64,000 nucleotides of DNA from Carcharhinus amblyrhynchos. Its lineage: Eukaryota. The notes below the pieces were generated by a model, which had not been told where the DNA came from, ran no database searches, and saw only the letters and a list, made by a program, of their open reading frames with translations. The stretch's first letter is position 1. Every line of letters starts with the position of its first letter. Location of the stretch: assembly GCA_965287045.1 (NCBI GenBank), contig OZ336886.1, forward strand, positions 19,778,001 to 19,842,000. Reading direction: 5' to 3'. This document shows, in pieces, positions 5,480 to 46,636 of the stretch. Position numbers and translations under genes: made by a program.

Positions 5480-7080
5480 GTATTGCTGAAAACAAAAAGA
5501 TGTGTCAAATCTTCTCATTTTGCACTCATCTGGAGACATCGCAAAAATAAGTTTATTTATTATTATCACAAGTAGGCTTACATTAACAACACAATGAAGT
5601 TACTGTGAAAATACCACTATAAGGGGAAAAATCTATTCATACTATATGAGAAAAATGTGCTGATTGATTGAGAAGTGAACTCTGATTGGGTGCCATGGAG
5701 AATGCGCTAAGTGATTGACAATTAATTGCCAAGCATTTGAAATTTAAACCAGGCAGTTTGACCCTGATTGATCAAGGCATTGCCTTGAGGTATGAGCCGA
5801 TGAATACTGTCACTTATTTTCTTTAGCTGAATTAGATGCAATGTGTGTAACTGTTCTTTCTGTCTGCAAAGAGGGACGTGCGTGTGAATATATGTAGCTT
5901 CCAATACACTTACAGCACCACACTGCGAGCCCGAATGACAATCTTAAATTGGTTCTCAGCGTAATTCTTAATATACTGAGGATTATTTAGCAATTGCAGA
6001 ACCAGATTTAATGTTGGACACTGTGTTTTGCATTTTGCGTACATGAGCTGGTTGGGCATGATCTATACCTTGCCCTTTGTGAAAAGCAGCTTGGGACATG
6101 TTATTTGATAGGATCTGCTGATCTTCGGGATGTACAGCCGATGTATCTAGCATCACACTGGCACCAAAATTCGTAATACTGCGTTACTCGTTTGTGTGAT
6201 AGCAGCACATCATTTTGGCTTGATGGCAGCATCCTATTAGTGGCAAATATCACTCATATTACTGCATGGTAGCAGAATGAAACAGCTAGCTGTATTCTCT
6301 GTTTTGAGATACCTTGCCCTTCCAAGGTCATCTGAGGTAGGCTGGGCACTTTTCAGAACCAAAGTGCGAGAATGTGTGTGATATCCAGCATGAAATGCCC
6401 TGATCAAGGTCACCATTATCCCACATGATGTCTTTGATGTGCCCTATTTCAGCATCAAGCTTGCATGATCAGCAAACGACTTGGGCCTTATTTACAAGAT
6501 TGTTGATTAGGCCAATCTAATGGAATTCTTGCACGGATCTAGTATATTAATGAGTGGTACATTAGCTGTTCACATATGCATCCAACATCACACTTCATCA
6601 CAGTCCTATCCGCCCTCCTGCACCATACTACCTCACCTATTCCACAACCCTGCAGCATTCCTCTCTTTCCCCTACCATCAAAGAAAGTGAGTTCATTTGA
6701 TGGCTCCATATTAATGGTGAATTTAAGTACTGGATGGAGTCCATTAAAATATGGTAAGGAAATTATTACATGCAGCTATGGATTTAACTATAGCAAAGAT
6801 ATTATCCACATATTTGAAATATGCAAGGGTTAGGAGGTTGGGTGTCACTCCATCAAAGACACATTTCTTATGGAACCCATCAAAGATGTTTGCAAGAGCT
6901 GGGCCTAGAGGGGATCCCAATGACAACACCATCTACTTAGTCACACATGGTGTCATTAAAGCAGAACTCAACTGCGCAAGTTGGCGAGTTCATAAGTTCA
7001 ATGAATACGGATTACCACAATGGTGGCACAATATTAGCCTTGGAGCAACTTACAGCACGAAATTCAGTCTGTGATGTCAA
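5480..7080 (-). mobile_element. Degenerate Penelope-like element (RT plus GIY-YIG)
   Basis: ORF 6744-6932 has LGSPLGPALANIF...YFKYVDNIF. A CDARYIG motif lies near 6130-6190. ORF 5722-5904 has EATYIHT..PLCRQKE. Confidence 0.85.
5551..5612 (-). mobile_element. Isolated type-B SINE/LINE tail inserted in the Penelope relic
   Basis: tttatttattattatcacaagtaggcttacattaac...aatgaagttactgtgaaaat is the reverse complement of the tail near 1895-1955. Confidence 0.75.
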
Positions 7081-13327: not shown

Positions 13328-14318
13328 TTTTCTGGAACATAAACACAGCATTGGCCTCAGATTTCATCACATCTTTATTTATACATCCAACACATTTCAT
13401 TAAAAGCTCCAGCATGATCTCTACACTTGTCAACAGCTCAAGTACAGTGGCCATCTAGTTCAATTCTCCAGCTAATCTCTTGTGGAGGGTTGATGCACCT
13501 AAAGGGAACAGGGGCATGCTAATCATAACTTGAAATGCTGGACAATACAGACAGTGCTAGCTTGTATGCCTGACCTGTGAAGAAAATCACCATCTACCCA
13601 TTAAATCTGCATTAACCTGGAGAAAGCAACAAGGAAATGAAAGGTCTGATGGTACTACTTTGATGGAAAAACAGAAAACCACAATGATTTCTGACAGCCT
13701 TCGATACTTTCAATATCTAATCTATTTATTTGGGAATGAGTTCAAAGAAAATAAGAAACTTAGTTTGAAAGTTCTATGTCTTACATCAGCATAGCGGCAT
13801 TATATATATTCGACGTTCCAGTTTGTGGACATGGTGGACTGAATTATTTAAGTAGCCATTTTTTGAATTGACACCCAAGTATTTGCAAAGGATAAAAGGA
13901 AAGGAAGGAACTGGGGTCACAGAAAAAAGGATCAAACCACTCTTCTTGGGACGATCAACTCAGAGATTATGAAAGGACACTGAGGAATCAGATCTTTACA
14001 CCATTAAAGTTCTAAATACGCCCAAAGCAGACTACCAAGGGATTGGCATTTGTGCTGTTCAGATCACGAGCTTCTCACAGAGTTGCAATCTCTGATCACA
14101 GAAGCCAAGTAGTTCCCAACTAAATTATAATTCAATGGTTACTCATTACAACTTGAACGTCAATGGGTATTTACCGTTTGGGGAATAAACCATAAGTGAA
14201 AGGGAAATAAAAATAATTAGCATGCTACATGCCATACTGTAATGTTACCAACAGAGGAGACAATAGCATTCATTGCATTCAACAAAACTGTTGAATTTAG
14301 CAACAAAGTACTCTTTAC

Positions 14319-14387
14319 CTTGTGGTCCCCCATGCAAACATTTGGTCCAATGTGGTCATAGATAACTGACTTCTCATCGTTTTCTGC
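14319..14387 (-). CDS. INPP5A: INPP5A-type exon (69 nt, about exon 14), AENDEKSVIYDHIGPNVCMGDHK
   Basis: Acceptor ctctgttttacag|GCA and donor AAG|gtaaag, phase 0 to 0. Matches recalled human SESEEKVVTYDHIGPNVCMGDHK, including the DHK of the DHKPV motif. Confidence 0.95.
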
Positions 14388-14603
14388 CTGTAAAACAGAG
14401 ATCACTTTCTTTAGAGACAGAGTGGCCATTCACAGCAAAGGTCTTTCCACAATTGCTCAGCAGTAAAGGCAAATATTTAGAAGGAGTGAGAAAGCAATCT
14501 ACAAGAGTTTTAACAAACAAGCAGAGTTGGAAGGCCACCCCTGCATGGATTTGTAAAAAAAAATCCCGCTGAAAGTCAGAAAACCATTTGCTCCAGCACT
14601 TAC

Positions 14604-14606
14604 AAA
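14604..14606 (-). other. Candidate 3-nt microexon (TTT, Phe); alternative 54-nt form 14604-14657
   Basis: Minus strand reads ggttttctcctccccttccaaaccccccacatcgTGCtTGCttccag|TTT|gtaagt. It preserves frame between the phase-0 exons. Confidence 0.4.
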
Positions 14607-15499
14607 CTGGAAGCAAGCACGATGTGGGGGGTTTGGAAGGGGAGGAGAAAACCATCTCTGGAAGTGGGTGAATAACATTGATGAGCAACAATTATATCCA
14701 CAAGCTGTTTCACTAATGGTGTTTGTGCTATTACTACGTGGCAGTTTCTAGTATTGATGATTTTGTTATTACTGGCACTTTCATTCATGGCAAATTGCAC
14801 CTTCTCTGTAACAACGTGATTATTATGCATTGGACTCAAGTACTAAGGGTAGTTTGTGCGCAGTTGTTGAAGGACTGTGTGAGAGGCCATTAACACATAA
14901 TCATTAAAGGCTTTGTATTAATCGGTACATGAAGTCGCAGAGAATAGGCAGATGATTGCTTATTCTGAATAATAAATATTGGTTTTTAAGACCATTTACA
15001 TCTTGAGTAGTTTAGCAACAAGAGCTGCTGAGGTGCCAGATTTGTACTGCAGGGCCAATCTTTATTGTAGTTAATAACCATTTGAGCATTTCAAAAGATC
15101 TGATCGGCCAAGAACAAATCCTGTTTGTAATGAACTTTTTCATGTATGTACAGAGCCTTCATTTCGAGGTGTGGATCACACTAATATCTGATGGTATCAA
15201 TCCTATTTTGGGGGTCAATGATTTTTCAGTTCTTCATTCTGCAATGTCTTATTAATGGGTGCACTTTAAAGCTTCCATTCTTGGCCGTTTGTAACTTTGC
15301 ATCACAATTATTTGATAGCCTAATTCCCTTAATTCCATTTTGTCCCATTAGTAGCAGGACAGGATTTCTGTTTTGTGCTGTGCCGTGTGAAAGGGCAGAA
15401 GACTGGGTCAGGGTTAAATACACATTTATGTGGTGTCTCTGGGACTGCCATCAGCACTCGGCATCACCCTCGCTGCTGCATGAGCTGCGACCTGGTGGA

Positions 15500-15513
15500 G
15501 TTACTATGGCAAC
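15500..15513. promoter_or_regulatory. RFX X-box-like palindrome GTTACTATGGCAAC
   Basis: 12 of 14 positions match GTTGCCATGGCAAC, in repeat-free intronic sequence. Confidence 0.4.
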
Positions 15514-16449
15514 CCTGAATAGGGCCCAGTGGAGGATCTTCTCCGTCATTTTTGAAAAAAAAATAAGTTGAAGAAGAAAAGTTTTACTGTGTAATTCTGA
15601 CAAGGCCAAGTTCTGAGTGGCATTTAAAGAATTGTTTTGTAAGAAAGAGTGTTGGGAGATTGGATGGACCAGACTCTTAACAGACCTATGAATGTCTGGG
15701 GAAATTTATGACCAGACAAAAGAAAATAAATGAGACCAATTGCAAATGTATCTTAATATTAGGAATAGAGTTTACTTTTCAGAGGAAGATATCATTCACA
15801 ATTTTGAACGAATATTAATGAGACTGGCAAAGTCAGTTTTAGAATTGATGACATGCAATTAATTTTCATTGCTCCAGAATGGGGAGAGATAGATTTCTGG
15901 AAGGATATTTGAATAGAGTTCATCTGTTGCTCTATAATACTATAGCCTGGTGGTAAACTAAATAGCTTTAGATAAAGACAGACCACATTCTTATTAAGGT
16001 CAGTACTTGCTCCAATAAAATTACCAGCCTTCTTTACTGAGACTGTAACAGCTTTTCTCTGCAGGGTATATTTCACTCCTTTGTTCAGAAATAAACCTCT
16101 TAAATGTTTATAATCTGATGTAAAATTGGCTGCTTTGTAAGGCCATGTACACGCAAAACAATTTCAATTGTGGGAAGAGCAAAATGGATCAGCTAATTGT
16201 GATCAATCTGCTACAATGATTCTTGAAAATGTCTCAAGCAGCAAAAGACAAAAGTAATTAAACGTTCACGAAAGCAACAATGGAGCGCACACAAAACCTA
16301 CATAAATGTGAAGGAAGTGAAGACATAAAGCTTCAGAGACTTTGTAACTCTACAGAATGGAGAAACAGCTCCTCCCAGAAACAGGGGAAAGTTACGGAGA
16401 TTTATATCGCAGACCACAGGTTGAATTTTACAGGTGTTGGGAGGTGTTG

Positions 16450-16995
16450 AGGGAGAGGGGTGAGTAGCATCGAGGGGGAGGGGGAGAGTTGCAGAACGGC
16501 GTGGGGGAAGGGTGTGGCATGGGGGAAAGGCATGGCACGGGGAGGGGTGCAGCGCAGGGAGGGGTGCGGATCGGGTGGAGCGTGGCATGGGGAGGGGTGT
16601 GGCGCGGAGAGGTACACGGCGCAAGGGGGCATGGTGGGCGGTGCGCGTGCGAGGGAGGGGTGTGGGGCAGGGGTGGGGTGTGGTACGAGGAGGTGCATGG
16701 CATGGGGGAGGGGCGCGGGGCAGGGGTGGGGCATGGCATGAGGGAGGGGCACAGCACAGGGAGGGATGTGGCACGGGGGAGGGACGAGGTGCAGGGGAGG
16801 GGCACGGCACGGGGGAGGGGCGCAGTGCGTGGGAGGAGCGCAGCATGGGGAGGGGCACAGCATGGGTAAGGTGCGGGTGTGGGGGATGGGCATGGCATGG
16901 GGAGGGGCGCGGCGCAAGAAGGGCGTGACGCAGGGGAGGGGCTTGGCCCAGTGGAGGGGCGCAGCGTGGGGGGCGCAACACAGTGGAGGGGTATG
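16450..16995 (+). repeat. G-rich degenerate minisatellite (about 15-nt unit ggcatggggaggggc)
   Basis: Dozens of GGGG runs and recurring ggcatgg/ggcacgg + ggagggg. Explains the stacked Pro/Gly-rich ORFs. Confidence 0.9.
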
Positions 16996-22902: not shown

Positions 22903-23014
22903 CTTATGAATAAGATCCCGTGCTGAATGAGACAAAAGGATACGATCACACCATGAGGGACACCTTGTGTTCATGTACTGCTTTCCCTGATTTGAATCCT
23001 CACTGTATGGATAA
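22903..23014 (-). CDS. INPP5A: INPP5A-type catalytic exon (112 nt, about exon 13), YPYSEDSNQGKQYMNTRCPSWCDRILLSHSARDLIHK
   Basis: Acceptor tttgtttcccag|T and donor AAG|gtaagt, phase 2 to 0. Contains the 5-phosphatase signature P(S/A)W(C/T)DRIL. Too short to appear in the ORF track. Confidence 0.96.
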
Positions 23015-44100: not shown

Positions 44101-46236
44101 ACTGGAAACCACAGAGATGTGGCTTACATCTCCAGTGGGAGCCTGCAAGGAAGCAAATGCATAAAAAGTTCAGAGTCAATTTGGCCAAATTCTCCGGCCT
44201 TTTATGCCCCGCCACCGCTGCCAGAGAAGACGGAGAATTTGGTGCTTAGCCAAATCTCCATTCACTGCAGCAAGACCAAAAAATCCTGCCCAAAGTCACC
44301 TTGGCAGCTAATGACTGACAGTACTGTCTTAACTCTGCTCTGAGATTGGAGTTCTGGCTATATCAATTGAAGGATTTTTCAGCAAAGTACTGTTATCGAA
44401 AACATTGGTTACCACTGTACAAGAATAGCTCCTTAAAGGTCCTGTGTGTATATGGCCTTCTGCTGCGAATACTTCTTGCCCTTCTCTACTCATTTTCCTG
44501 GTCATACTTAATATCAGGAGGAAGCCCTAGTTGGCCATCCAAGTTTGGAAACAACTGATTTGTGCACCAGCATTTAAGTCAGCAAAAAACACTTCAGCAA
44601 CCAAGGTATGTGCAATTACAAAGTAGTAATCTTATAAATAACCTGTAAATACTTCATGAATTATTTAATTAATATTGGTGGAGGGTCAATCAAGACGTTT
44701 GATGATGTGAGAGATTATGAGAGAGCATAAGCTCTGCCACACTAATTGAAGCCATGATTTATCTGTTCTGCATATTGCTGACAGTCACTAAGATATGAGC
44801 AAAATAACCCCTTACAAATATGCCCCAAAAAATCAGCCACTTTAGATCCCAATCTTTGGCCTTCCTGATCATAAAACAGAGATTAAATTTTAAAAGAAAA
44901 GTGTCTCTCAGATTCCTGCAAGCCAGACTTGTGAGGAAGGCTCACATACCCGAGGTAAAAGTAAGTAAGCTATTCAAGCTTGGACAGCAGTACAGGATTA
45001 GAGAAAATGTATGCAAAATTCAGAAGGTTGGCGATTAGAGAAACCTCTTCCCCACAAATGTGAAATGAGTTGAAGGCCATTGATTTGAGGCCAGTGGTAC
45101 TGTTAAAAGATTTGGAATAACTATCTATTCAGAAGGCGAATTGGGGATTATACAGATTTCCAACACCTATTTTCAGAGGAAGCTCAGGAGAGAAATCAGT
45201 TCTCTTGATGTACCAAATCAAGAGCTGGTGTTTGACCATCGCACAAAATCAAGCATCGACATAAGAGATTGGGCTTGATGGGCTGAATGGCTGTTCTTGT
45301 ATTCTCTTCTTTTTAATGCAGTTTTTAATTTTTAATTTAGTTTTATTGCTAAAACTGTATCCTTCAAGGATTGGTGACAATGTCACTTGGTGAGGCAATC
45401 AAAGAATCGTGCTAGCAATCCCATTGCTTGCCTAAGCAATGGTCTTACAAATGAATCTACTGGCTTAGAATAATAGCAAAGTGCGAGAGCAAAGTCTAAC
45501 TGGTTTATAAAATTCTACACGAGTTGGATCGACAATTTAGACTCATGGGAATTCCTAACATATTCAAAATGATGATTTTGCATTTTAAAAGTGGCTTTGC
45601 ATTTCGAATTTGCTTTATTGGTTAAGTTCAATGATCTGGTTGCCTGACGTGCAAGTTCTTCAGAGGTATGTCAAGATAATAGATGGACAAAGAAAATCAG
45701 TTACTTTATGGACACTATACAACTGAACTTGAAAATATTGGATCACAAGGCAGAACCTGAATTATCATTGGGATATTTGCAACTAGGGATGGGAGGAAAA
45801 CATCATTTACTAAAACATATCCCAATGTAGCGCTAAAAGTAATAGCTACTGAAATACATTCAAGGAAATATTTGTGAGATCCCATGACATGAGGAGAAGG
45901 TAAACACCAAGCTTCAATAAAGCACAGGGCTTTAAATGGCATGCACAGTCAAAGGTCAAGTCATAACCTGAATGTAAACTAAAGCCCTTTTTTTCCCCAT
46001 TTTCTAAAAGAGGCAGTGGCCCTGTTAATCATCGCTGATCCAACAAATCATTTGCAAAGGATGCTGATAAGCGCAGTCTCACCTTTCACATCACCACATT
46101 GGAAAATGTGAAAAGAAAACTAAACACTTTAAAATGTTAAAGAGTTTTATTCCCCCCAATTAGTTCCGAGATACAATATTTGGCTTTGCTTTCAGTGAAA
46201 TGTTTGCAGGAAAACAGTGAAATATAAATTTTGTAC

Positions 46237-46310
46237 CTTGGTGGAAAAGATATCTCTTGTTCACTCAACTTGTCTTTAAATCCCGACAGCTCCCTGTCAA
46301 ATTCTAAAAG
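46237..46310 (-). CDS. INPP5A: INPP5A-type 5-phosphatase internal exon (74 nt, about human exon 12), LLEFDRELSGFKDKLSEQEISFPP(S)
   Basis: Acceptor ttcttttcag|CTT and donor CCAAG|gtacaa, phase 0 to 2. The translation matches recalled human LLEFDKELSVFKDRLYELDISFPPS. Ortholog versus paralog is not resolved. Confidence 0.93.
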
Positions 46311-46636
46311 CTGAAAAGAAATCAATTAACAAAAATGTTATTTTAACATTATAAATTATAGTATTTCACTGGTCTACTGACCAGCCTTGTTTAAGCATTT
46401 CTGTTCTGACCAGGTATCTCCCATGCCATGTTATCTTGGCTTCTAATAGGTTCCAGCAACATGGATTACCCGGTAAGTGTCACCAGGCTTTTGGAACATT
46501 AAGGACATCACAGCAAAGTCCAGTCCTGTCTCCTTCTGATATCTTTGTAAAGGGGACAGCAATCGGGAAGAACACTGTCTAATTTCTCTTTAGCAACCGA
46601 CAAATAGAGAGAACAATTGTAATGTGTCTACTATAG

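Follow-up and report, generated by a model that had tools for sequence, protein, structure and literature searches.

The window analysed here, a 64,000-nt stretch of the Carcharhinus amblyrhynchos genome, carries three exons of INPP5A on its minus strand. This gene encodes type I inositol 1,4,5-trisphosphate 5-phosphatase, the main IP3-removing enzyme, which damps the calcium signal. Exon 12 occupies positions 46233–46313 (approximate tblastn limits); exon 13, at 22903–23014, encodes the PSWCDR motif and ends with LIHK in phase 0; and exon 14, at 14319–14387, runs from AENDEK to GDHK. The three exons are about 85–100% identical to shark INPP5A records, and this identity supports the gene assignment, exon 14 numbering and reading frame given in a previous sequence-only reading of this DNA. 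The host gene has the PxWCDR and GDHK motifs and a 5-phosphatase fold, with PF22669 found on the protein matches. INPP5A spans ~0.5 Mb of its contig (C17), of which intron 13 takes up 8.5 kb. Two positions encode residues that differ from the listed shark records: 14354 (minus strand, exon 14) encodes His where those records have Asn, and ~46280 (minus strand, exon 12) encodes Gly where they have Val. At 14354, sequencing runs X15 and X20 agree with the letter in the window, and runs X16 and X17 carry the other letter.

The genome also contains a compact INPP5A paralogue at ~4,404,500–4,435,400 of a second contig (G000:C34, minus strand), ~35 kb long versus ~500 kb for INPP5A itself. Its exon 14 appears to begin five residues later, which shortens the same loop that the exon 13–14 junction of INPP5A encodes. 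Intron 13 of the paralogue holds only two candidate sites, of 58 and 19 nt, neither of which is a multiple of three.

The feature under study lies in intron 13 of INPP5A, where the minus strand reads cag-TTT-gtaagt. The TTT occupies 14606–14604; the last base of the acceptor cag is at 14607, and the donor-like gtaagt occupies 14598–14603. Read as an exon, TTT is a candidate 3-nt unit in phase 0, free of stops and encoding a single Phe, with exon 14 downstream at a distance of 216 nt (to its start at 14387). Two TGC motifs precede it, at −13 (14619–14617) and −9 (14615–14613). Farther upstream, a 17-nt pure pyrimidine run (14635–14651, −45 to −29) lies within a 47-nt zone devoid of AG, and pyrimidines make up 35 of the 45 bases from −48 to −4 (20 C and 15 T, hence C-rich). 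Each element listed in the sequence-only reading, namely the tract, the TGC pair, the cag-TTT-gtaagt core and the 216-nt distance, is present as described and falls on the minus strand, which that reading had left unstated.

Use of an AG farther upstream would give a longer candidate exon at 14604–14657, predicted to be 54 nt long, in frame and 18 amino acids in length. The minus-strand translation of 14657–14604 is RWFSPPLPNPPHRACFQF, whose last codon is the TTT itself; the plus-strand translation of the same interval differs. The in-frame, stop-free 54-nt form claimed earlier therefore agrees with our translation. A second AG lies two bases beyond the first in a tandem AGAG and defines a 52-nt form starting at 14655, which shifts the frame and runs into a stop inside exon 14. 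A simple consensus scan of the 120 nt above the TTT site found yUnAy branch-point matches only at −63 and −76 (A at 14669 and 14682), both upstream of a pair of AGs (−51 and −49); the same scan returned no match inside the AG-free zone.

Positions 13400–16400, compared with the 2.9-Gb genome in a search that skips very common words, match only themselves. Repeat origin of the candidate site is thus rejected as far as such searches reach, in line with the repeat-free context noted earlier. A recursive splice site is likewise rejected, the sequence being AG-TTT-GT and not AG-GT. Elsewhere in intron 13, a degenerate GC-rich tandem array with a period of ~18 occupies 16498–16966 of the window and is C-rich on the sense strand.

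We compared the splice signals of the TTT site with those of real INPP5A exons, scoring donors against the U1 consensus as generally known. The pyrimidine share of the site (0.78) exceeds that of every real INPP5A acceptor measured (0.51–0.76). Its donor has 6 of 11 U1 matches, equal to the lowest of the 11 real donors read (range, 6–9), whereas the true donor of exon 13 has 9 of 11. The deficit is exonic: the intronic gtaagt is perfect, but the TTT pairs poorly, and among real INPP5A donors G stands at −1 in 10 of 11 and T in none of the 11, one other match having yielded no donor. The donor had been called strong on first reading, a description that fits its intronic half and not its exonic half. 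The acceptor of the last INPP5A exon is also C-rich and has two TGC motifs, so a tract combined with TGC is not a design confined to microexons.

How often such a site would arise by chance was estimated over 464 kb of the gene (the window plus 40 adjoining loci), with each strand scanned for YAG followed by 3n nucleotides (3–27 nt) and GTRAGT, a pyrimidine share of at least 0.70 and a TGC. The YAG, 3n (up to 27 nt) and GTRAGT requirements alone returned 65 sites on the sense strand and 46 on the antisense strand. The full criteria left one sense site, the TTT site, and no antisense site, so that it ranks first over both strands (928 kb). The chance expectation, taken as the product of the separate frequencies, is 0.44 sense and 0.35 antisense sites per 464 kb, or 0.05–0.06 per strand of 64 kb; with thresholds chosen post hoc to suit the TTT site itself, this figure falls to ~0.01 per 464 kb. 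The site is thus the best of its kind in INPP5A, yet about one gene in three of ~0.5 Mb would contain such a site by chance. Within intron 13, GTAAGT occurs once besides the true donor (~1.5 expected), and there are ten open in-frame pseudo-exon candidates, of which the TTT site is the best by tract, TGC and AG-free zone. Because it is the best by these measures, we leave a real microexon a low but appreciable probability.

Evidence on use came from transcript-like contigs and from protein records. A run search gave 24 rows from 13 studies, 20 of which match some portion of the stretch; four may be source DNA, and no matching row is registered as RNA. We aligned contigs from four of the six RNA-like runs to 14150–14950, the RNA status of these four being a guess from the run search; the other two, X18 and X19, share little with the stretch and do not count as evidence. 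In all four contig sets, which come from four studies with four organism labels, exon 13 is joined straight to exon 14 with no letters between them, and in three of the four the contig also continues into exon 15. No contig set among the four, all of unlabelled tissue and of a kind that drops rare variants, has 3, 52 or 54 extra bases at this junction. The contigs leave 14393–14878 uncovered, and the uncovered part proves nothing; they prove the skip form and not the absence of other forms. A contig from run X16 reads from the exon 13–14 junction into intron 14 (14173–14318), and small fragments of intron 14 occur in runs X15 and X17; these contigs may represent a retained intron, unspliced RNA or DNA.

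At the protein level, we assembled 246 INPP5A proteins from the matches listed (the best 120 of 255, the best 120 of 493 and 15 of the 43 members of the shark cluster). One motif is missing in 31, and 215, all from vertebrates, have both WCDR and GDHK. The spacing between these motifs is 36 residues in 209 of the 215, including 17 records from cartilaginous fish; it is 38 in three, 34 in two and 70 in one. The three proteins with a spacing of 38 are from lungfish and carry their extra residues inside exon 14. A spacing of 37 or 54, as expected from one or 18 additional residues, occurs in none of the 215 vertebrate proteins, and pieces of the 18-residue peptide RWFSPPLPNPPHRACFQF appear in none of the INPP5A proteins examined. 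The two insert-free forms bear the isoform numbers X1 and X2 in Carcharodon, Cetorhinus, Scyliorhinus canicula, Chiloscyllium and Rhinoraja. RefSeq numbers isoforms by falling length, so a longer form with the insert seems to be unannotated in those five genera. The contig and protein counts weigh clearly against the 54-nt form but weakly against the 3-nt form, because ordinary aligners such as STAR lose exons shorter than ~10 nt. Standard annotation would be liable to miss the 3-nt form, as predicted earlier, and would catch the 54-nt form.

We take mouse Inpp5a to lie at 139.4–139.6 Mb on the plus strand of chromosome 7. In the accessible part of the mouse MicroExonator table, the sole plus-strand chromosome 7 row at 139.x Mb is at 139.09 Mb, outside that interval. 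Among whole 3-nt exons, the accessible tables contain AAG 11 times, GAG 11 times and CAG eight times in mouse and four, two and four times, respectively, in zebrafish, and neither species has an entry for TTT, TTC or GTT (six of the 64 triplets queried; PMC7821500). A literature search by title or start of abstract, with subscription papers, VastDB and bioRxiv supplements outside its scope, found no INPP5A microexon.

The candidate insertion point falls in a loop that we examined in a structure model of a close relative, P0126. The model, built from a 92-row alignment, has a pLDDT of 93.6 and replaced an earlier one from 50 close relatives (pLDDT of 52.9); it matches the solved structures of SHIP2, synaptojanin and INPP5B (E ~1e-14). 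In this predicted structure, the exon 13–14 junction corresponds to Lys364–Ala365 (P0126 numbering), at the end of helix 356–363 and in a surface loop that forms the sole internal low-confidence block of the model (pLDDT of 76 versus mostly 94–98 elsewhere). Of 148 further proteins from a representative search, 113 distant relatives hold both motifs, with WCDR–GDHK spacings of 29 to 94. Judged by such spacings, the length of the loop is variable across eukaryotes yet nearly fixed in vertebrates. The earlier placement of the insert, between LIHK and AENDEK in a variable loop flanked by two catalytic motifs, is borne out by this range and by the low pLDDT. Two fish-type gene models, P0089 and P0287, have inserts of 34 and 24 residues, respectively, exactly at the exon 13–14 junction; the inserts share an FGRR-LG-like piece, are unrelated to the shark peptide RWFSPPLPNPPHRACFQF and may be either prediction artefacts or a teleost cassette.

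Just outside the window, INPP5A has an isoform choice of another kind. Exon 15 has two donors, leading either to the farnesylation tail CCVVQ or to a tail ending in ETAL; the route from the inner exon 15 donor to the last exon involves positions 5773–5696 and 5516–5466 of locus L002 (minus strand; G000:C17 ~19,773,500–19,773,800). The tails ETAL and ETTL fit the class I PDZ-binding pattern. Among the 246 proteins, 155 tails are of the CAAX type and 37 end in ETAL, ETTL, EAPL or EAPM, the latter in sharks, rays, frogs, a salamander and teleosts. The CAAX/ETAL pair is already represented in public gene models as X1 and X2, from sharks to frogs and teleosts, and the accessible text of PMC12450637 contains no discussion of it. 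From these tail sequences, we regard the pair as a conserved membrane-anchor switch that is better supported than the TTT site.

Taken together, the counts suggest that the TTT stretch is probably an unused, cryptic splice look-alike in intron 13 of INPP5A; the probability that we attach to each of four readings is a judgement from these counts. Several properties could account for its silence. U1 would pair with the donor through the six intronic bases only, the exon letters being TTT, and a 3-nt exon would be too short for unaided exon definition. Between the branch-point matches and the TTT stand two earlier AGs that the spliceosome would need to bypass, and the stronger donor of exon 13 would be expected to outcompete that of the TTT site. 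Such a look-alike would be an ordinary cryptic site, serving as a gauge of microexon-like signals in large shark introns, with about one gene strand in three of this size carrying one. The principal competing reading, which we think unlikely but would not dismiss, is a real neuron-only, SRRM3/4-dependent 3-nt microexon, possibly restricted to sharks, that places one Phe between Lys364 and Ala365. It draws on the class architecture of the site (3n length, phase 0, TGC pair and set-back tract), on its being the only sense-strand site to reach such quality across the 464 kb scanned and on an insertion point in a length-tolerant surface loop. Its regulators also seem to be encoded in this genome, where SRRM_C (PF15230) has matches over the cut-off at two loci, G000:C23:41400928–41401071 and G000:C20:38432942–38433070, which are likely SRRM3 and SRRM4 from their sequence. 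SRRM3/4 would then bind the UGC pair, aid U2AF and U2 on the −63 branch point and the tract set back from the AG, and form a bridge to U1 on the gtaagt; the added Phe might form a hydrophobic knob on the surface loop, with an effect on contacts with the membrane or with partners and not on catalysis. Against this stand the direct exon 13–14 junction in all four RNA-like runs, the uniform spacing of 36 in 209 of 215 proteins with no case of +1, the lack of a comparable site in intron 13 of the paralogue and, in the accessible catalogues, the absence of TTT among the 3-nt exons queried and of a mouse entry at the presumed Inpp5a locus. A precedent exists within the enzyme family, exon 18a of OCRL (PMC5118406, as far as its accessible text goes). 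On inclusion of the TTT exon the evidence leans against without settling the matter, and we treat it as a candidate only.

The two longer forms share the same donor and fare worse. A young, low-inclusion 54-nt cassette, entered at the AG at 14658 and adding an 18-residue proline-rich loop, is highly improbable: exons of such size are visible to standard annotation, yet +18 residues occur in 0 of 215 proteins and pieces of the peptide in none, and the RNA-like contigs pass directly from exon 13 to exon 14 in four of four runs. Its open frame, which is the first of its attractions, is matched by the count of ten open in-frame pseudo-exon candidates in intron 13 alone. More specific to it are a yUnAy branch point 25 nt above the AG at 14658, the usual distance, and the long loop inserts that occur in distant relatives. 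Poison exons under regulation are typically embedded in highly conserved sequence, which we count against the remaining and least probable reading, a 52-nt frameshifting poison exon that uses the second AG of AGAG and would lead to nonsense-mediated decay, invisible in steady-state RNA. Decay would account for its absence from contigs and protein records, and the stop in exon 14 precedes two more junctions, but a positive sign of use is absent.

Were the 3-nt microexon real, the SRRM3/4 programme could have recruited it recently, with a possible role in tuning neuronal IP3/Ca2+ signalling in sharks, and INPP5A would have a one-residue switch limited to one lineage, a minimal case of microexon birth. 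It would be an INPP5A microexon absent from the literature and catalogues searched, unusual in its TTT and in using a branch point far enough upstream that a tandem AG is passed over. Even so, such an exon would add one more member to a well-known class, of modest interest, and not a new kind of system.

Three known systems offer points of comparison. In the accessible part of a study of SRRM3/4 microexons, UGC lies between the branch point and the AG in 74–79% of cases, with the tract set back from the AG and UGC between the two (10.1101/2024.09.17.613571). The TTT site shares with this class (also termed nSR100 or eMIC microexons) its 3n length, AG and GT ends, UGC near the AG and set-back tract; it departs from it in having TTT where the accessible tables list AAG, GAG and CAG as 3-nt exons (PMC7821500) and in branch points that lie above competing AGs. 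The site thus resembles the SRRM3/4 class by sequence, and we do not file it as a member of a class defined by inclusion, neural bias and regulator dependence. According to the accessible text on OCRL, exon 18a is spliced in brain, encodes eight residues and improves clathrin binding (PMC5118406). It is a small in-frame neural exon in an inositol 5-phosphatase gene, and the TTT unit is a candidate in the same family; however, exon 18a is proven and belongs to another gene and position, whereas the TTT unit would add one residue in the last loop of the catalytic domain. The third comparison is with the cryptic or pseudo-exons of long vertebrate introns, which the TTT site resembles as an open stretch bounded by AG and GT that has plausible splice signals but shows no evidence of being used. 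It differs from them in degree, standing out among the intron 13 candidates by its pyrimidine tract, its TGC motifs and its AG-free zone.
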